In this document: one piece after another, positions 2,899 to 45,206 of the stretch
Layout: every line of letters starts with the position of its first letter
Numbering within the stretch: the first letter of the stretch is position 1
Virus record (IMG/VR): IMGVR_UViG_3300012167_000015
Span: 1 to 45,790 of that record
DNA: 45,790 bases
Strand: one strand, 5' to 3'
DNA from: a virus
Taxonomy: Duplodnaviria > Caudoviricetes
Program-made: the position numbers and the translations under genes
The notes under the pieces: generated by a model
What the model was told of the DNA's origin: nothing
Database searches by the model: none
The model's input: the letters and a program-made list of their open reading frames with translations, nothing else

Positions 2899-4803
2899 TC
2901 AGCCCTCGCCGTCGGGCCCGTAGAGGACCAGCGCGACGAGAGCCACGTCCGCCGCCACCTGCGCGGCGGAACGGGGTGCCACAAGCCCGTGGCGGGCGGC
3001 GGCGGTCTTGGCGACGGTGACGAGCTCCGTCTTCGTCTTGAACGAGCGGGTCAGGGCGACGTCGCCGACGGTCGACAGCGTCACGGCCGGGGTGTGGTCG
3101 TCCCAGGTGAAGTCGAGGTGGTCGATCTCGAGGGCGCGGACGACCGCCTCCAGTCGTTCGACGGCGAGGCCGTCGAGGCGGGCGTTCGGGGTGTCGGCAT
3201 CCACGTGGGCGGCCTGCTTGATGGCGGCGAGCATCGACGGTTCGTCGAACTCGGACGCGATGTGCTCGACCGCCTGCACCCGGGCGACCCCTTGGGCGAC
3301 CTTGGCGGCGAGGACGTCGCGGATGAACTCGGCGTGTTCGGGCGTCCAGTTGTGCTGGCGGGTCGGGACCCCGTGGTTGGCGCAGAGCGCGTCGGCTTCG
3401 GCGCGCAGATCGATGGGGAGGCTGTCGTAGGTGGCCTTGAGTCGGTCGATGTCGTCGACGTCGGCCTTCGGGGGGCGTGGCTGGATCTCCGCTTCGCTGG
3501 GCGGTTCGATCGTGTTGGGCTGCCGTCCGAGCGGCCCCGGCTCCTTCGGGATGTTGTCGTAGAACGGGGCTTCGCACTCTTTCTCGGCGGCCACTACGCA
3601 CGCCTCGACCTCGAGGACCTGCGCCCAGGTGGTCGGACCGCCCTGCTTGAAGGTGGGGACGCCGGCCGGCCAGTGGATCAGGTAGGCGGGGGTGCCGAGA
3701 TCCACGGCGGCCTTCAGCCGTTCCCCCAGGTGGGCGACGGCGACGGCCAGCCCGGTCGGTCCGGGGTCGATCTTCTGTGGCTCGTCGGCCGCCGTGTCGC
3801 GCTTGGGGACGGCGGGGGCGGCGAGCATCGCCTCGAGGTCATCGACCGCCGGGGCCGGCTCCGGCTCGGCCGTGGCGCCGTTGGTGGCGGGAGGGTCGAG
3901 GAGCTGCCCGAGGTCGGCGGCTGCGATGATGTCGGGAAGGTCGGCGAGGAGAGTTCCGAGCTTCTTGGAGCGGTTGCGCCAGTCCCGGGCCCACATGGCC
4001 TGCTGGACGGCTTCCCAGCCGGCGACGATGTCGACGACCAGCAGCGTGCATGTCGCTTGCCCGGGGGGCAGGTGCATGACGATCGCCTGCTCCTTGTTGA
4101 CCTCCGGCATCGGCTCGCGGGTCTTCGTCTTCGGATTCCAGATGAAGTCGCCGTGCGCGTAGAGCGCGAGCTGCATCGCGATCTCGCCGAGCTCGTAGAG
4201 CTCCTTGGCGGTCTTGAGGTCACCGACCACGGGGAGCGAACCGAGGCGGGGAACCTGCAGGAGCCGGTCGAAGGTGCCGGCGATCCCGAGTTCCTCGAGG
4301 ACGACGACCCGTTCGATCATCGACGGCACCACGGTAACGTGTCGCTGGCGGAGCTCGAGGGCGTAGGCCCGCAGGTCGGCGTCCCAGGGGGCAGGGACGG
4401 CGGAGACGTCGTCGCCGCGGTCGTGCCGTTCGGTGAAGGAGTGGAGGGCGGTGCCGAGGTTCCGGCCGACGGTGGCGGCGGCGGCTTCCTGGGCTTCCTC
4501 GAGGAGGGCGTTGAGGGTCTTGCGGTCGTCGGGGTCGCAGGCGGCGACGCGGGCGTACAGGTCGGCGCGGCGGGTGAGGCCGATGGCGGTCATCCGCTTG
4601 CCCCAGAGCTCGAGGTTGTACGTGTCGGAGAGGGTCTTGGCGACGGTGGTGGCCCGGGTGTGGGCGACCTTCTTCTTCGGGTCGTCCTCGGCCGGGATGA
4701 GGTAGCGGCCGTACCGGTCGCGTTCGATGCCGTCGTCGACGACCACGTCGGCCGCGGCCGTTGCGGTGGTGTCGTTGAGGAAGTCCGCGATGACGTCAAT
4801 CAC
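2899..4803 (-). CDS. PD-(D/E)xK exonuclease (RecB/Cas4-like) with long C-terminal extension
   Basis: RDRYGRY, TRATT, GTALH, IAGTFDRL, GDLKT and QLALYA motifs. Start set at GTG 4803. Confidence 0.85.
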   Translation of the reverse strand: MIDVIADFLNDTTATAAADVVVDDGIERDRYGRYLIPAEDDPKKKVAHTRATTVAKTLSDTYNLELWGKRMTAIGLTRRADLYARVAACDPDDRKTLNALLEEAQEAAAATVGRNLGTALHSFTERHDRGDDVSAVPAPWDADLRAYALELRQRHVTVVPSMIERVVVLEELGIAGTFDRLLQVPRLGSLPVVGDLKTAKELYELGEIAMQLALYAHGDFIWNPKTKTREPMPEVNKEQAIVMHLPPGQATCTLLVVDIVAGWEAVQQAMWARDWRNRSKKLGTLLADLPDIIAAADLGQLLDPPATNGATAEPEPAPAVDDLEAMLAAPAVPKRDTAADEPQKIDPGPTGLAVAVAHLGERLKAAVDLGTPAYLIHWPAGVPTFKQGGPTTWAQVLEVEACVVAAEKECEAPFYDNIPKEPGPLGRQPNTIEPPSEAEIQPRPPKADVDDIDRLKATYDSLPIDLRAEADALCANHGVPTRQHNWTPEHAEFIRDVLAAKVAQGVARVQAVEHIASEFDEPSMLAAIKQAAHVDADTPNARLDGLAVERLEAVVRALEIDHLDFTWDDHTPAVTLSTVGDVALTRSFKTKTELVTVAKTAAARHGLVAPRSAAQVAADVALVALVLYGPDGEG

Positions 4804-8931: not shown

Positions 8932-9194
8932 CAGCTGGCCTCCCCCATGTCGGCGCGAGCCGGCCAGGCGAAAAGCTCGGCGGGCTCGATCATCAGCCGG
9001 TCGGCGATCACGGCCTTCAGCCGGTCGTGCGGGATCATGTCGCCCGCCTCGATCTTGGAGATCGTCTGCTGCGTCACGTCGCAGAGGCCGGCGAGCTGGG
9101 TCTGTGTGAAGCCGAGCTCGGTGCGGCGGTCGGCCACGGCCTTCCCCCACCGTTCAGCGAGCGTCTCCACAACCGTCAACTGTCTCACAGCCAC
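8931..9194 (-). CDS. Cro-like XRE HTH regulator
   Basis: RRTELGFTQTQLAGLCDVTQQTISKIEAG; divergent from the repressor. Confidence 0.88.
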   Translation of the reverse strand: MAVRQLTVVETLAERWGKAVADRRTELGFTQTQLAGLCDVTQQTISKIEAGDMIPHDRLKAVIADRLMIEPAELFAWPARADMGEAS

Positions 9195-10458: not shown

Positions 10459-10902
10459 GTGGCTGGGGAGACGACCGTCTGGAACCCGTGGCGGGCCCTC
10501 CGCGAGCGCCCACACCTCCAGCTCGCCTGGGGCCGGCTGTCGCACGGCAAGGGCCGGATCGTCGACCACGGCGACGGCCAGCGCACCGTCACCCTCGACA
10601 CCCGGCTCACGCGCATCGATCGGAACGCGGTGCTAGCGCACGAGCTGGTGCACGACGAGCTCGACTTCCTGTGGGCCCGCGGGACGCCGGCGGCGATCGT
10701 TGCTCACGGGGAGCGGGTGGTCGATCGGATCGTGGCCGACCGCCTCGTGCCGCCGCAGCTGCTGCACCAGTTCGTGTACGCGTACAGCGAGCTCGAGGGC
10801 GTCACCATCACCGTCGCCGCCGACGAGTTCCAGGTGCCTCTCGATGTGGCCGATCTCGCCCTGCAACGCCTTCCCTTCTGGAGGGCCGAGGCCGTGGGCT
10901 AG
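10459..10902 (+). CDS. ImmA/IrrE-family metallopeptidase (anti-repressor)
   Basis: WNPWRAL N-terminus, RNAVLAHELVH (HExxH), ADRLVP, AADEFQV; located between repressor and integrase. Confidence 0.88.
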   Translation: MAGETTVWNPWRALRERPHLQLAWGRLSHGKGRIVDHGDGQRTVTLDTRLTRIDRNAVLAHELVHDELDFLWARGTPAAIVAHGERVVDRIVADRLVPPQLLHQFVYAYSELEGVTITVAADEFQVPLDVADLALQRLPFWRAEAVG

Positions 10903-12032
10903 GGGCCGTCGAGGGCTTGGCCGAGGTGGTCGGCGGCCTGCCGGTCGCGGGCGGGCTGGAAGTGCGAGTACACCTCGAGCGGGGTGGTGGTGTTCGCCCA
11001 GCCGCCCCGGCCGGCGAGCGTGCCGATGTCATACCCGTCGGCGAGAAGCCGGGTGGCCATCCAGTGCCGGAGGTCGTGGAGACGCACGTGCTCGAGGTCA
11101 AGGCGCCTGCGCAGCGCTGCGAACCGCTGGGTCGCGCCGTCAGGGTGCCACGGTTGCCGGCCAGCCGGATCCCGCGAGAAGAGATGAGCATCGTCGACTA
11201 GCGGGGCGCCGACGGCGAGCGAGGACTCGGCCTGCCGGATGCGATGGTCTCGGAGCTCGACGATGGTCGCTGGGTCGAGGGCCACGGGGTGGCGGAGCCC
11301 GGTCTTGGTGCCCTTCTCGACGGCGCCCCCCTTCACCTTGGCGAGGGCGCGGGTCCAGCGGATCTCGCCGGCGTCGAGGTCGACGTCGGTCCAGCGGAGT
11401 GCGCAGACCTGGCCGCGGCGGGCGCCGGTGACGGCGGAGAGGCGGATGTACAGGCGGAGGGTGGGGTCGGCGGCGTCGAGGAGCCGGGTGACGTCGGCTG
11501 AGCTCGGCGGGACGATCTCGCTCCTGGAGCGCCGTGGCGGGTCGATCCGGTCCGCCGGCGACGAGGTGATCAGGTCCCAGCGGACGGCCTGGCGGAGGGC
11601 GGCACGGAGGATGTCGTGGAGGCGGGCGACGCTGGAGGGGCCGAGGCCCTCGGCGCGAAGCCGGGTGTAGAGGTGGTCGAGGTCGACGGGTCGGAGCCGG
11701 TCGACGGCGATCGTGCCGATGCGCGGGGCGAGGTGCCTGGCGATGCGGGCTCGGGTCTCGTCGGCGGCGCCGGGGGACCAGCTGGGGGCGCGGTGCTGGA
11801 TGTAACGCTCGAGGAGCCCGGCCATGGTGGTGCCGGCGCAGGGGACGGTGCGTCCGGCGTCGACCTCGGTGACGAGCTTGGCGAGCTCGCGACGTGCGGC
11901 GCGCTCCCCGGTGCGCGTGTCGGGGCCGGCGACGGTCCGGTAGACGTGTCGGCGCTTGCCGGTGATGGGGTCGGGGCCGGCGTCGACTCGGAGCCGCCAT
12001 GCCCCGGCGCGGTGGCGGAGGTACCCGGTCAT
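10899..12032 (-). CDS. int: Tyrosine integrase
   Basis: TGARRGQ (R), KT (K), HDLRH, GGW (W variant), EVYSH (Y); N-terminal arm-binding DPITGKRR. Confidence 0.96.
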   Translation of the reverse strand: MTGYLRHRAGAWRLRVDAGPDPITGKRRHVYRTVAGPDTRTGERAARRELAKLVTEVDAGRTVPCAGTTMAGLLERYIQHRAPSWSPGAADETRARIARHLAPRIGTIAVDRLRPVDLDHLYTRLRAEGLGPSSVARLHDILRAALRQAVRWDLITSSPADRIDPPRRSRSEIVPPSSADVTRLLDAADPTLRLYIRLSAVTGARRGQVCALRWTDVDLDAGEIRWTRALAKVKGGAVEKGTKTGLRHPVALDPATIVELRDHRIRQAESSLAVGAPLVDDAHLFSRDPAGRQPWHPDGATQRFAALRRRLDLEHVRLHDLRHWMATRLLADGYDIGTLAGRGGWANTTTPLEVYSHFQPARDRQAADHLGQALDGP

Positions 12033-12062
12033 CGGGCGTCACGGTAGGCGCGGGGTGTGACG
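12033..12062 (-). promoter_or_regulatory. PafBC/RecA-NDp-like promoter for the integrase (leaderless)
   Basis: Minus strand CGTCAC-N10-TACCGT-N8-ATG. Confidence 0.6.
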
Positions 12063-12141: not shown

Positions 12142-12188
12142 TGGTCGGGTGGGGGAGATTTGAACTCCCGACCTCTGCGTCCCGAACG
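12142..12188 (-). other. attP core: 3' half of tRNA-Pro(CGG)
   Basis: Minus strand CGTTCGGGACGCAGAGGTCGGGAGTTCAAATCTCCCCCACCCGACCA gives the anticodon loop, T-arm, acceptor 3' strand and CCA, about 110 bp from the int start. GGGGGCAG arm-type repeats occur near 12066-12085 and 12282. Confidence 0.9.
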
Positions 12189-29069: not shown

Positions 29070-29515
29070 GCCTCCGGGGTCGGGTGCTCGGGGTGGTCCT
29101 CGAGGAGCAGGTAGCGGTTGACGGCGAAAGTGCTGTAGTGCACGTCCCGCACGATCAGGGGCCGGCCGACCAGCTGCTCGTCGTCGGACCGGTCGAGGAC
29201 GAGGACGTCGTCGACGAGGATCTGATCGGCCCCGTACGGCAGGGACGCCCGATACCGGTGGAGGGTGACGGGCTGGTCGCCCTGGTCAATGTCGCCGCGC
29301 TGCTGCGACGGCTCCGCCTGCACCCGCAGGTCCCCGGTGTACACGGTGGCGCCCGCTGCCGGCGTCAGGACCTTCGTCACCGGGTCGATGGTCGGAGCCG
29401 CGTCGCTGGGCCGGAAGATTAATCCGTGGTCCGGGAGCCCGGCGTCACCGACCGCCGACCGGCGAAGATTCTCGTGGAATCGCGGGTGCATCAGCCGGCT
29501 GTTCGGCAGCGGCAT
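29066..29515 (-). CDS. Head-to-tail stopper (DUF6093-like)
   Basis: TVYTGDLRVQ..YRASLP..SDDEQLVGR; gene order. Confidence 0.8.
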   Translation of the reverse strand: MPLPNSRLMHPRFHENLRRSAVGDAGLPDHGLIFRPSDAAPTIDPVTKVLTPAAGATVYTGDLRVQAEPSQQRGDIDQGDQPVTLHRYRASLPYGADQILVDDVLVLDRSDDEQLVGRPLIVRDVHYSTFAVNRYLLLEDHPEHPTPEA

Positions 29516-29904
29516 CAGACCAGCCCGCGATCGACCTGCCGCCAGAAGCGCTCGCGCTGGCCGAACACCGGGTCGGCGAACTCCGCAACCGCGAAGTCGT
29601 CCGTCGCGTCGGCGGCGTCGTCGTCAGCCCGGGCCCGGAGCTTCTCGGCCCGCTTCAGGAGCGAATCGGCGACCTTCGCCCCGTCGGTCTGCACATCGAG
29701 CGTGCGGATGACCTTGAGGACGAGAGCCTGGTCGACCGCGACCGTCTCGAGGGCGAGCGCGGCGGCCCGGAACACGTTGGACCCTTCGAGGGCGAGGAAC
29801 GTGTCGATCTCGTCGTTGGTGAAGAGACGGACGTCCTCGTCGTCGGAGGTGTCGGTGACAAGGAGCCGTACGCGCCCCGCGTCGGTGTTGGGGTCGTAGG
29901 CCAC
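29515..29904 (-). CDS. Head-to-tail adaptor
   Basis: GRVRLLVTD..LFTNDEIDTFL..AAALALE; GGAGGAG RBS. Confidence 0.85.
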   Translation of the reverse strand: MAYDPNTDAGRVRLLVTDTSDDEDVRLFTNDEIDTFLALEGSNVFRAAALALETVAVDQALVLKVIRTLDVQTDGAKVADSLLKRAEKLRARADDDAADATDDFAVAEFADPVFGQRERFWRQVDRGLV

Positions 29905-29924
29905 AGACAGCTCCTCCCGTCAGG

Positions 29925-30001
29925 TGGTGGCGAGACACCGGAGTCGCACCGGCTTCGTTCTCGGGTAATGAGCCCGAGCGAGATCTGACCTCCCGCTCGC
30001 A
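29925..30001 (-). tRNA. Non-canonical tRNA-Met(CAT)/initiator-like element
   Basis: 77 nt: TGCGAGC GG GAGG-TCAGA-TCTC G CTCGGG-CTCATTA-CCCGAG AACGAA GCCGG-TGCGACT-CCGGT GTCTCGCC A CCA. Three G-C pairs in the anticodon stem, 1:72 mismatch, encoded CCA. Confidence 0.6.
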
Positions 30002-30023
30002 CGACCTGATCAGTGGCGACGGA

Positions 30024-31202
30024 TCAGGTGCCGTCGCCCTGGCTGGCCACAGTGGCCTTCTGGCCGCCCGTGGAGATGAGCCGGGTGCCGCCGAACACGT
30101 GGCGGACCTTCCACTGCACCGTGTCGGTGTCGAAGTCGGCCAGGTCGCCGTCCGGGCCCGCGGTGCCGCCGACGCGCTGGGCGTCGGAGCGCTTCATGAA
30201 CAGAGCCGGCTCGGTGTGGCCCCGCAGGAAGCCGACCTCGAGGGCGGGGCGTCCGTCGGCAGGGTTCGCGAACAGCGCCCACATCGTGTTGCCGTTGGCG
30301 GTCGACGCCACGATCGGGATGTACGGGTCGACGACCAACTTGAGCCGGTTGCTCATCCAGTTCTGGGCGATGAGCCGCTGGTTAGCGGTGCCGCCCTGCT
30401 CGACGATCTCCAGCTGGATGGCGTTGAGGATGTTCTGGGCAGTGACCTCCAGCGCCGGGGGCACCACGAGGGTGACCGAGTCGATGAAGATCGGCTCGCC
30501 GTCCTCGTCGCGCTGCGCGGCGAGCACCGTGTACGCCGTCTGAAGGGCCGCGATGCTCAGCACCGGGTTGCCGGTCACGATGTTCGCGAACGGTGCCGTG
30601 TAGAGCGAGGCGTGGGGCCCGTTGGCGTCGACGTAGAGGTCGGTCACGAACCGTTGCACCGACCGGCGGGCGCCGCGGGCGAGCCGCTCGGGGAGCGCAC
30701 GGAAGGCGTCGAGGTCGTCGTTGACCAGGGTCTCCCACGACAAGGGGAGTCGGCGGCCGTACTTGCCGACCCGGTACTGGTCTCGGGACTCCTCGAGCGT
30801 CGCGGCCGGGTACGGGGCCTGCTCCGCGACGGCCTCGAGGGCGCCCTCGGCGCCGTCGATCGCGTGGCGGGACACGAGCCGGAAGTCCGGGACCGTCGAG
30901 GTCCGGGCGTAGGCGCGCCACACCTCGGGGATCTCCCGGTAGGCGGCGAGGAGCTGCCGGTCGAGGATGTCACCGAAGAGCAGCGGGAAGTCGCTGGTGG
31001 TGAGCGCCTCCTGCAGGTGGTACATCGGCCGGCGGCCTTCGGACACGTCGGCGACCAGGTTGGCCGCCTCGGTGAGCTGCGACATGTAGCGGGCGTCGCT
31101 GTGGTGGCCGCGCACTCGGGTCTCGCCGTCGAAGAGCCGACGGACGTCGGCCTCGGACGCGGCGATCGTCTCGAGCGTGTCGGCCATCGTTGCAGTGGGC
31201 AT
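30024..31202 (-). CDS. Major capsid protein (Mu gpT-like)
   Basis: TTSDFPLL, VPDFR, KYGRRLPLSWETLVNDDL, LVVPPALE, LEVGFLRG, KVRHVFG. Confidence 0.93.
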   Translation of the reverse strand: MPTATMADTLETIAASEADVRRLFDGETRVRGHHSDARYMSQLTEAANLVADVSEGRRPMYHLQEALTTSDFPLLFGDILDRQLLAAYREIPEVWRAYARTSTVPDFRLVSRHAIDGAEGALEAVAEQAPYPAATLEESRDQYRVGKYGRRLPLSWETLVNDDLDAFRALPERLARGARRSVQRFVTDLYVDANGPHASLYTAPFANIVTGNPVLSIAALQTAYTVLAAQRDEDGEPIFIDSVTLVVPPALEVTAQNILNAIQLEIVEQGGTANQRLIAQNWMSNRLKLVVDPYIPIVASTANGNTMWALFANPADGRPALEVGFLRGHTEPALFMKRSDAQRVGGTAGPDGDLADFDTDTVQWKVRHVFGGTRLISTGGQKATVASQGDGT

Positions 31203-31231
31203 GGTTGGTCCTTCCTCTCTGATCGTCTCGC

Positions 31232-31612
31232 TCAGGCCGCCGGGCGGGGCGGCAGGAGGAGGACGCGGATGGTGCTGGTGGCGCCGGATGCGACGGCTTC
31301 GAGGGCGATGCCGAAGTCGGTGCCGTTGGTGATGTCGACGTTGACCTCGCCGTCGGTGTCGACGACGACGAGCTCACCGATCGACACGGCGGCGTTGCCG
31401 GCGCCGTCCTCGCCCTTCACGGGGAGGTCGAACACCCACGCCGGGTCGATCGCGCAGGTGGCGTGGAGGGCGGCGTTGCCACCCTCGCCTTCGGCGGTGA
31501 TCGTCACCGCGGGGACGACACCGAAGATGATGAGCGCGGTGCCGGCGGCGGTGCCGTCAGGGACGGGCAGGCTGAGCTTGCCGACCGGCTCGAAGATCTC
31601 GTTGGTGGCCAT
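31232..31612 (-). CDS. Capsid cement/decoration protein (DUF2190-like)
   Basis: MATNEI..VFDLPV..FGIALEAVASG. Confidence 0.8.
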   Translation of the reverse strand: MATNEIFEPVGKLSLPVPDGTAAGTALIIFGVVPAVTITAEGEGGNAALHATCAIDPAWVFDLPVKGEDGAGNAAVSIGELVVVDTDGEVNVDITNGTDFGIALEAVASGATSTIRVLLLPPRPAA

Positions 31613-42871: not shown

Positions 42872-43831
42872 TCAGCGGGCGCCGACGAGGCGATCGGCGA
42901 GCCGATGCTCGGGGCTGCAGTAGAGCCGGGGCCGCCCGGGCTTCCCGGTGGGGGCGATGACGGCGTCGCAGGTGGCGAGCCGGCACGTGCGCACCCCGGG
43001 GGTGGGGGCCTTGAGCCGGATCTCGATGGGGACGGTGATGAGTTCGAGCTGGTCGGTCTCGTGTTCCCGGTGGGAGGTGGAGAACAAGACGTCGCGCTTG
43101 GCGTCGGGGCAGAGCCGGCACGACACGCAGGCGCCGACGCCGCCGGCCATCAGCGGGATGCGTTCGGCGTTCTCCGGGCAGACGAGGTGGGGCCGGTCGG
43201 GGGCGAGGGCCCGGGCGCTCGAGTAGTCGACGTCGCAGAGCGCCAGCAGCACGTCGGGGTGCTCGCCGACCCGCTCGAGGGCCTGGTCGATGTTGTGCGG
43301 GTCGGCCGACAGGTAGAGGGCGAGGTTGTCGATGCCGGCGAGGATCGGGATCACGTCGACGGGGTCGACGAAGGAGCGGGTGTAGGTCCAGAACCGGATG
43401 TCGGGTGAGGTGGTGATGACGGCGCGCCAGGCCCGGGCGTAGTCGAGGCTGTAGAAGTCGCCGTCCCAGTGGATGCGGAAGATCCGCTCGGCGTCGGTGA
43501 GACCTCGACGTTGGGCTTCGGTGCGGTACCGGCCGACGGCCTCGGCGAGGAGCGCTGCCATGCTCTCGACGGTGCCGGCCTGCTCGAGGAGCATCAGGTT
43601 GTGGTCGACGAGCTCGGCGACACCGGGCCAACCGGGTTCGAGGTGGGCGGCGTAGCAGGACACACAGAAGTCGGTGGCGCCCGGGCAGCTGGCGCCGGCG
43701 GGAAGCCCGAAGCTGTTGGGGATGGTGGCCACCCATCGCTTCCTGGAGGCCTGCCACAGGCCGCGCGGGGACACCTTGCGGTCGTGGCTGAGCTTCAGCC
43801 ACCGGTCGTCCTGGTGCCCGCGCATGCTCAC
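42872..43831 (-). CDS. GP88-family protein (radical-SAM-like Cys motif)
   Basis: SFGLPAGASCPGATDFCVSCYA, FRIHWDGDFYS, FWTYTRS, CVSCRLC; C-terminal GRPRLYCS finger. Confidence 0.8.
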   Translation of the reverse strand: MSMRGHQDDRWLKLSHDRKVSPRGLWQASRKRWVATIPNSFGLPAGASCPGATDFCVSCYAAHLEPGWPGVAELVDHNLMLLEQAGTVESMAALLAEAVGRYRTEAQRRGLTDAERIFRIHWDGDFYSLDYARAWRAVITTSPDIRFWTYTRSFVDPVDVIPILAGIDNLALYLSADPHNIDQALERVGEHPDVLLALCDVDYSSARALAPDRPHLVCPENAERIPLMAGGVGACVSCRLCPDAKRDVLFSTSHREHETDQLELITVPIEIRLKAPTPGVRTCRLATCDAVIAPTGKPGRPRLYCSPEHRLADRLVGAR

Positions 43832-44124
43832 GTCGGGGAGGTCTCCCCCGTCGCACTCGTGGTCGACCCCCAGCCGTCGCCGAGCTTGAGGTTCTCGATC
43901 TTCCCGCCCACAGCAGCGGGGGTGGGCTGGTGGCCGGGCAGTGGGGAGACCTTCCGGGGCGGGTCAGCAGAGAGGATGGCCGCCTTGGTGCACGGCTCGC
44001 ACAGGAACCGGGTCTCCCATGGCGCGTTGGTGCCGCCGGGCTTGATGCGGCGTTCCTGGACCTCGAGGGTGGCGTCGGTGCGCCTGCACCCGTCGCAGCG
44101 GTGACGGATCGACGTGGCCATCAC
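43828..44124 (-). CDS. Small zinc-finger protein
   Basis: RCDGC...LCEPC; coupled on both sides. Confidence 0.65.
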   Translation of the reverse strand: MMATSIRHRCDGCRRTDATLEVQERRIKPGGTNAPWETRFLCEPCTKAAILSADPPRKVSPLPGHQPTPAAVGGKIENLKLGDGWGSTTSATGETSPT

Positions 44125-45206
44125 GACGTCCGGACGGGCATCAGGAGGAGCGTGTACGGCTCCTCGCGGACGACGGCGGGCTTGAGCGCGTCGACGAGCT
44201 CGAGCGTCACCTGCTCGCCGTGGCAGGTGGTGATGACGTCGAGGAGGTAGCGGGCGTTGAACGCGACGGTGACCGGCAGGCGGGCGCCGTCCCCGTCGAC
44301 GTTGAGGGTGGTGGCAACCTGGCCGACGTCCTGGGTGAACGCCTGGACGGTGGCGTGGCCGTCGTCGTCGCAGCTGAGCCGCACCGGGGTGGAGTCGGCG
44401 CAGAGCGCAGCGGCGGTCCGTACCGCTGTGACCAGCTGGGCACGGTTGAACGTCCACCGGGTGAGTGCGGCCGTCGGGATGAGTCGGCTGTAGGGCGGGA
44501 ACTCGCCGGTGATGCGGTCGACCCGGATCTGGACCTCTCCGGCTTCGATCATCAGCTCGTGCTCACCGACGGTGAGGGTGGCGTGCTCGGAGGCGAGGAG
44601 TGTCGGGAGGAACCGGATCGCTCGGGCCGGCAGCAGCACGTCACCGTCGAGGTGCTCGACGGTGATCGGGGCCGTCCACGAGGCGATCGCGAGCCGGTAC
44701 GTGTCGGTGGCGGCGACTTCTTCGGCGCCCAGGCGGATGCCGGTGAGGATCGGGCGGGCGTCGTCGGCGGATGCGTAGTTGGCGACGTGGCGGATCCGGT
44801 CGATGTCGCCGGCGAAGAGCTTCACGACCTCGCCGTCAGGCACGGCCAGCCTGGGCCAGTCCCCTATGGGCAGGACCCGGAGCTTGGCGGTGGTGGTGCC
44901 CCACTGGAGCGTGAGCTCGTCGTCGCCGGGTTTGAGGGTGATGTTGCCGACGGTGTGCTGGGCGAGCTTCTGGAGGAGCCGGGCGGGCACGACGACGTCG
45001 AGGCGGCCCTCGGCGGGGACGTGGGTGGTCACGGCGAGCTCGATGTCGGTCGCGGTGATGGCGGCGTGGCCGTCGGCGATGGTGATGCGGACGCCGGTGA
45101 GCACGGGCAACGTGGCGCCCCGGCCGGCGGCGGGGGTGACTTGCAGGAGGGCCTGGAGGAGGTGTTGGCGCTTGATCGAAGCGGTGTCGGTGAGCGTGGC
45201 TGTCAT
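44121..45206 (-). CDS. dnaN: DNA polymerase III beta sliding clamp
   Basis: LPVLTGV, ATDIE, DDARPILTG, ATDTYRLA, GEFPPY, FNARYLLD, LLMPVR; 361 aa. Confidence 0.95.
   Translation of the reverse strand: MTATLTDTASIKRQHLLQALLQVTPAAGRGATLPVLTGVRITIADGHAAITATDIELAVTTHVPAEGRLDVVVPARLLQKLAQHTVGNITLKPGDDELTLQWGTTTAKLRVLPIGDWPRLAVPDGEVVKLFAGDIDRIRHVANYASADDARPILTGIRLGAEEVAATDTYRLAIASWTAPITVEHLDGDVLLPARAIRFLPTLLASEHATLTVGEHELMIEAGEVQIRVDRITGEFPPYSRLIPTAALTRWTFNRAQLVTAVRTAAALCADSTPVRLSCDDDGHATVQAFTQDVGQVATTLNVDGDGARLPVTVAFNARYLLDVITTCHGEQVTLELVDALKPAVVREEPYTLLLMPVRTS

Follow-up and report, generated by a model that had tools for sequence, protein, structure and literature searches.

A predicted divergent initiator tRNA gene encoded between the capsid and adaptor-like genes of a temperate phage

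Phage-encoded initiator tRNAs and tRNA-based counter-defence are already known, and the CI RNA of phage P4 is a tRNA-like processing element. Phages carry tRNAs for reasons that are still debated, and loss of the initiator halts all translation. In the available text of the relevant reports, VapC cuts tRNA-fMet in the anticodon loop (PMC12321070), phage tRNAs show anticodon-loop changes (PMC10264068), AriB contacts the D-loop (PMC12409363), and Cas12a3 contacts the T-arm (PMC12851939); for the element described here these are precedents and not evidence. At the tRNA elbow, G18 and U55 form a contact that reviews describe as conserved (PMC4810234, PMC7609411), and U55 is called universal (PMC4810234). 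The riboswitches for FMN and cobalamin, in contrast, regularly have T-loops of the form UGNRA that take in an adenosine (10.1101/2022.12.26.521914).

The stretch of DNA analyzed here (the window) is a whole virus record of 45.8 kb with 70% GC, whose minus strand carries terminase, portal, capsid, tail, lysis, and tyrosine-integrase genes. As judged from sequence comparison, minus-strand positions 29925–30001 are a real, divergent initiator tRNA (tRNA-fMet, CAU) gene encoded by this temperate phage. The element occupies part of a gap of 119 bases. Upstream of the gap is the gene for the major capsid protein (30024–31202, minus; PHROGs 4523/133, PF25209), with which the element shares its orientation, and downstream is an adaptor-like head-completion gene (29515–29904, minus; 45% identity to ‘putative adaptor protein Ad1’). 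PHROGs matches of the latter are families of unknown function, and a Pfam search with it gave no match. Next to the integrase gene (10899–12032), the 3′ half of a tRNA-Pro(CGG) at 12142–12188 (minus) is likely the attP; 45 of its bases (12144–12188) are identical to a gene in the Acidimicrobiales genome G001. Because this match and the closest genomic adaptor (66%) both fall in that genome, the host is probably an Acidimicrobiia bacterium, an assignment we regard as tentative. Contig C107 of G001 has three partial copies of this tRNA-Pro 3′ end within 9 kb (3721–3776, 9124–9168, and 12007–12049), which suggests stacked integrated elements. The window also encodes a sliding-clamp-like protein (phrog_947; 44121–45206, minus) and a GP88-family protein (42872–43831, minus).

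The predicted mature RNA is 77 nt long and reads as a four-armed cloverleaf with tRNA homology and an ambiguous D-arm register; re-reading of the sequence found the cloverleaf-type features present as an initial annotation had described them. Initiator hallmarks comprise the CAT anticodon, an anticodon stem whose lowest three pairs are G-C, a U1 x C72 mismatch, A73, and an encoded CCA. The anticodon loop CTCATTA (29966–29972, minus; CAT at 29970–29968) has U rather than a purine at position 37 (29967), and the T-loop TGCGACT (29942–29948, minus) has G at position 55 (29947) and retains U54, C56, G57, and A58; both loops are the same in a relative from sequencing run X5. In model-based alignment the D-loop contains A18-G19 (29985–29986, minus), with A replacing G18. 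The elbow is thereby A18/G55 in place of G18/U55, with G19 and C56 retained. Position 8 is G and A14 is absent, leaving no U8-A14 pair. Further irregularities are a 6-bp anticodon stem, a long variable region, and an acceptor with five regular pairs and a bulge at an irregular base. The D-loop is 5 nt long in one register, as first annotated, and 7 nt in the other; the remaining deviations named at that time are present, and U37 had been overlooked.

Standard scans miss the element because two near-universal features are altered. ARAGORN at default settings called no tRNA at this position, calling it only at 95% of the threshold along with five other calls in the window, and an Rfam search (RF00005) gave no match to the element even at E<=10. 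Covariance models, in contrast, recover it. Two models from which the element was left out, one of 34 G55 and one of 40 U55 viral initiators, score it at 40.5 and 34.8 bits, compared with 11.6 and 13.4 bits for their best non-tRNA matches in the window, although part of the element's score is built in through the anticodon-arm pattern with which the model sequences were chosen. It is the lowest of 35 G55 sequences on the U55 model (34.8 vs. 43.9–85.4 bits). In addition, the element shares a 25-base exact match with a phage tRNA-Met (locus L034), and its exact 17-base anticodon arm occurs in 10 viral loci, every one of them an ARAGORN tRNA-Met(CAT) gene. A chance cloverleaf in GC-rich DNA would suit the folding energies, which are not above chance (z of −0.68 for the 77-mer and +0.56 for the 119-mer), as well as the five other relaxed ARAGORN calls. 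This explanation is contradicted by the homology, the model scores, the position between the head genes, and the conservation in X5, and we consider it exceedingly improbable; it is homology, not folding energy, that sets the predicted tRNA above chance.

In these alignments, the odd D- and T-loops are a single coupled swap, A18/G55 for G18/U55. A pattern combining the initiator anticodon arm with a TGCGA T-loop identified 43 viral loci, which represent 34 distinct tRNAs and often belong to tRNA arrays. Of the 43 loci, 33 are called by default ARAGORN; the other 10 are missed, as is the window element besides. A control pattern with other bases at position 55 gave 120 loci from 4 of the 64 collection parts (about 2400 overall), and for the D-loop comparison 100 of the 120 were given and 99 counted. 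D-loops were compared by model-based alignment instead of two rule-based classifiers, which were noisy. AG without GG was found in 29/35 G55 initiators, the window included, vs. 0/99 of the others (p 8e-24, uncorrected for relatedness); the remaining G55 sequences read AGG (four) or aligned poorly (two). Both states occur within the element's own subfamily (four loci, three distinct), where L349 and L352 have G18/U55, and A18/G55 is found in the window and in L350, which belongs to an array of 25 tRNAs. Among 401 Actinomycetota genomes (12 of them marked unpublished, none of which carries a claim by itself), the G55 pattern matched none and the U55 pattern matched 342. By analogy, an A18-G55 contact would be equivalent to the adenosine intercalation of the riboswitches. 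The tRNA-Met of the cultured Streptomyces phage BillNye is of the ordinary G18/U55 type, and no cultured A18/G55 example was identified. The literature covered, mainly the main texts of open papers, held no description of A18/G55 in phage or bacterial tRNAs; the supplements of PMC10264068 may list some.

Other tRNAs touch on this pattern. In the arrays of L157, L162, L164, and L187, A18/G55 is also present in tRNA-Ile, tRNA-Thr, tRNA-Leu, and a second CAT tRNA, and the initiators of these arrays seem to carry A8/U14 instead of U8/A14. The G18/U55 sister tRNA of L349/L351 (2492–2562) is by itself in the gap between two genes. As with the window element, a ribosome-binding site follows right after its CCA; as far as visible, this tRNA is not among head genes.

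U at position 37 recurs in viruses. A scan for initiators lacking A37 yielded 119 loci from 57 of the 64 collection parts and 103 distinct matches, 58 of which were called as CAT tRNAs at a relaxed threshold (U 42, G 14, C 2), a census in which related sequences are not collapsed and a few entries may not be bacteriophage initiators. Most of these viral tRNAs have ordinary bodies; L034 carries U37 alone, without the elbow swap, and L390 combines U37 with A18/G55. In the 401 Actinomycetota genomes, the 10 pattern matches to non-A37 initiators (two genomes unpublished) included no tRNA. We found no description of U37 in phage initiators in the papers covered, again mainly open articles and their main texts. 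[quoted passage not shown]

The gap between the capsid and adaptor genes is a variable slot that holds a hairpin or a short open reading frame in relatives. About 145 capsid or adaptor loci were fetched and 96 of them, with near-duplicates and distant ones omitted, were searched with the G55 model; three (L122, L124, and L125) have a match in the slot and 93 have no tRNA there. Therefore, only part of this phage group has an initiator tRNA in the slot. L122 is a near-identical copy of the window (1 mismatch in 6387). L124 and L125 (adaptor identities of 61% and 60%) encode ARAGORN-positive tRNA-Met(CAT) genes of the ordinary U55/GG type directly ahead of the adaptor ribosome-binding site. The slot of L154 (adaptor 66%) contains a hairpin and no tRNA, the 140 upstream bases available for L123 (adaptor 69%) contain no tRNA, and among 31 capsid relatives of up to 59% identity, none was found in the 24 scanned or after the capsid stop in the 21 inspected. 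Contigs of run X6 link the capsid and adaptor genes through a gap of another size (319 vs. 254 bases), which is not alignable at 80%. A DNA search of cultured phages with the region returned only a chance 21-base match, in two records of one phage. Following the capsid stop, the gap carries a GC-rich hairpin in L001, L008, L009, and L154, and a small open reading frame in L003, L010, L032, L033, and L125. The slot tRNA of L125 (2051–2127) has C33 in its anticodon arm, and that of L124 (2903–2978) has C29-G41 replacing the first G-C pair, as well as C73.

Evidence for selection comes from one independent relative, a 951-base soil contig of run X5. Its length and two amino-acid changes match it to protein P0003, one of the adaptor relatives P0003–P0011 (75–87% identity); identical copies (runs X1–X4 and L122) were excluded from this count. 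Over 698 aligned bases, the contig differs from the window at 114 (about 84% identical). In the narrower comparison, 16 of 21 differences were located and the other five seem to be within 30 bases of the ends of the aligned piece; one difference falls in the 50 RNA bases checked and nine in the next 20 bases (Fisher p 2e-5), with the comparison covering the RNA from base 28, so that up to four further differences could sit in bases 1–27, A18 included. Against the contig-wide divergence of 16%, 1/50 has p 0.0015, or 0.006 if all five unlocated changes lie inside. The first flank difference immediately follows the CCA, and at the other end the alignment breaks off three bases ahead of base 1. 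X5 keeps U37, G55, the extended variable region, the acceptor bulge, the CCA, the CAU anticodon loop, and the 3′ C strand. An overlapping reading frame was considered as the cause of this conservation and rejected because the 20 bases after the CCA lie in the same frames and carry nine changes.

The flanks of the RNA have diverged and still pair. The 5′ arm TCAGGT (30004–30009, minus) and the 3′ arm ACCTGA (29920–29925, minus), which takes in the final A of the CCA, form a 6-bp helix extending the acceptor, with pairing of 0.94–0.99 in three of four folding windows. The Shine-Dalgarno sequence GGAGGAG of the adaptor-like gene (29911–29917, minus), a purine run retained in X5, L124, and L125, begins two bases past it. 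This extension, proposed in the initial annotation, is present as described, and its 6/6 pairs hold in X5 as GCTGGT/ATCAGC, with two compensatory changes, one G-U, and a one-base shift, the 5′ counterpart being read from a loose end. A random hexamer would keep this pairing 0.2% of the time, a figure that makes the case look too strong, as shared ancestry is ignored. Covariation, suggested at the outset as a check, was thus found at both the elbow (18/55) and the flanking helix.

A decaying pseudogene, or a cassette lately exchanged between two phages, would explain the same conservation by descent and not selection. Phage genomes are mosaic, the element falls under the ARAGORN and Rfam thresholds, and there is a single independent close relative, all of which leave room for this account. 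It fares poorly with a conservation that ends exactly at the CCA and three bases before base 1, with deviations that are paired (A18/G55) or recurrent (U37), and with flanks that diverged while their pairing persists; moreover, a tRNA pseudogene diverging like its unconstrained neighbors does not fit 1/50 vs. 9/20 in the one relative. Because the RNA is conserved in X5 and the flanking helix is kept by compensatory changes, the element is not decaying, and we consider descent alone very improbable. The element is very probably a selected tRNA-derived RNA, and its initial description as an initiator-tRNA homologue under selection is borne out by homology, position, and conservation in X5.

Folding of the isolated 77-mer favors an alternative 9-bp hairpin (29975–29999, minus) over the cloverleaf (−29.0 vs. 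−25.5 kcal/mol), and if the inner five pairs of this hairpin are instead taken as a D stem, shifted in register, they enclose a 7-base loop. Folded with flanks, the RNA shows mean pair probabilities of 0.64–0.75 for its acceptor, anticodon, and T arms in three of four windows and 0.25–0.48 in the fourth; the flanking helix may act as a folding clamp in the precursor. Three of five comparison tRNAs fold as a cloverleaf, and two subfamily members do not fully do so. The competing folds first annotated therefore stand in part: the hairpin exists and wins in the isolated 77-mer, whereas a regulatory switch was rejected, as the hairpin dominates only in that molecule in silico and there is no sign of switching.

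In the available text, the determinant for MetRS is the anticodon, and those for the formylase are the 1x72 mismatch, A73, G2-C71, C3-G70, G4-C69, and R11:Y24 (PMC9976931). The element retains all of them, with R11:Y24 holding in both D-arm registers. We propose that the initiator tRNA gene would be co-transcribed with the capsid and late head genes. A scan of 29500–31500 found no promoter or terminator of the types that it covers. The flanking helix would hold the precursor in the cloverleaf, and host RNase P and 3′ nucleases likely release the tRNA from the late head-gene transcript. MetRS would read CAU and the formylase the 1x72 mismatch, A73, G2-C71, C3-G70, and G4-C69, while A18 would slip into the UGCGA T-loop as riboswitch adenines do and G19-C56 would stay. 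The released tRNA would be charged, formylated, and used in initiation. U37 and the altered D- and T-loops would interfere with recognition by tRNA nucleases, of the VapC type or another, and the phage initiator would keep translation starting once host nucleases destroy host tRNA-fMet. U37 falls in the anticodon loop, where VapC cuts tRNA-fMet. Evasion is counted against by the tendency of phages to avoid encoding tRNA-fMet where VapC targets it, as the available text of PMC10264068 puts it. Also counted against the proposal are the most irregular body of the G55 set, the hairpin preference of the 77-mer, and the A37 triple. On balance, the element is probably a working initiator, and the full reading, in which it is cut from the late transcript and likely resists anticodon nucleases, appears evenly poised.

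Three other functions bear on this balance. A working initiator might simply add supply in late protein synthesis, its odd bases being tolerated or freeing it from host modification enzymes, with no defence involved; the U55/GG tRNAs at the same position in L124 and L125 agree with this, and G55 would remove the TruB target base. At position 37, however, viral variants have U, a transversion, more often than G (42 vs. 14; relatedness uncorrected), and the three slot tRNAs depart from the host-type arm (L225) at different places (U37 in the window, C33 in L125, C29 in L124), as evasion would predict. We regard supply without defence as unlikely but worth some weight. A non-translating decoy made at capsid-mRNA levels, which would bind fMet-targeting toxins or nucleases and spare the host tRNA, had been put forward in the initial annotation. 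Strong conservation of the most irregular body among the G55 sequences would fit such a decoy, as would a U37 that may impair P-site function, but the retention of the CCA and of all charging and formylation determinants weakens the claim, and U37 recurs in otherwise canonical viral initiators; a decoy seems somewhat less likely still.

The same annotation had also offered a tRNA-mimic processing element, here a cis signal whose tRNA shape draws RNase P and 3′ nucleases, splits capsid from downstream mRNA, and lowers adaptor output, leaving the RNA as a by-product. In the window, X5, L124, and L125, only 3–7 bases separate the end of the CCA from the ribosome-binding site; other relatives carry GC-rich hairpins in the gap, and the flanking helix covaries. 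Such a signal could do without the CAU anticodon loop, yet this loop is unchanged in X5, and the closest body types sit in tRNA arrays away from head genes. The decoy and the processing element both lose further ground because relatives have an ordinary tRNA-Met in this slot and because tRNAs of phage arrays, where no neighboring gene is processed, show the deviations too. The retained charging and formylation determinants count against both as well, and we judge the processing element improbable.

A broader idea carries lower confidence. Phages might use a hidden initiator class in which a riboswitch-type elbow, a position-37 pyrimidine, and a precursor clamp of the RNA's own making combine to escape several tRNA-targeting defences at once; jointly with this, the class would fall below standard detectors and U37 would be a widespread, undescribed escape from initiator-cutting nucleases. 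We consider this combination less likely than not. In U37 and A18/G55, the element offers two natural single-site changes where near-invariance has been assumed; L349 vs. L350, L034 (U37 alone), and L390 (both, in an ordinary body) provide close natural controls. It also indicates that selected phage tRNAs escape detection, given that default ARAGORN missed it and 10/43 other G55 initiators.

Among the closest known systems is bacterial tRNA-fMet, with the host-type L225/L226 of G001 as an example. The element shares with it the CAU anticodon, three G-C pairs, the 1x72 mismatch, G2-C71, C3-G70, G4-C69, purine 11-pyrimidine 24, A73, the CCA, U54/C56/A58, and G19, and differs by A18/G55, U37, G8, the lack of A14, a short or shifted D arm, a 6-bp anticodon stem, a longer variable region, and an irregular acceptor base. 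Its UGCGA T-loop fits the YGNRA consensus of the FMN and cobalamin riboswitches, with A as the partner base, in the portion of that source available; unlike theirs, this loop lies in a tRNA elbow, and its geometry would follow by likeness. Counter-defence phage tRNAs (PMC10264068; T5 against PARIS/AriB, PMC12409363) similarly show anticodon-loop and D-loop changes from the host type, but in the available text they are mainly elongators described without an elbow swap, while the element is a predicted initiator.

With tRNA-dependent lysogeny, as set out in the available part of PMC10865867, the locus has in common a temperate actinobacterial phage, a tyrosine integrase, a tRNA att site, and a phage tRNA gene. 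That system requires a short att core and a phage tRNA of the disrupted isotype; it was rejected here because isotype and core length do not fit, as the 45-base tRNA-Pro(CGG) core is enough to rebuild the gene and the phage tRNA is of the Met isotype. Finally, mascRNA, in the text available (PMC9976931), is likewise a tRNA-shaped unit within a longer transcript and a plausible RNase P substrate. Unlike mascRNA and P4 CI RNA, the element has a complete anticodon arm, retains its charging identity, and derives from a tRNA gene of the ordinary kind.
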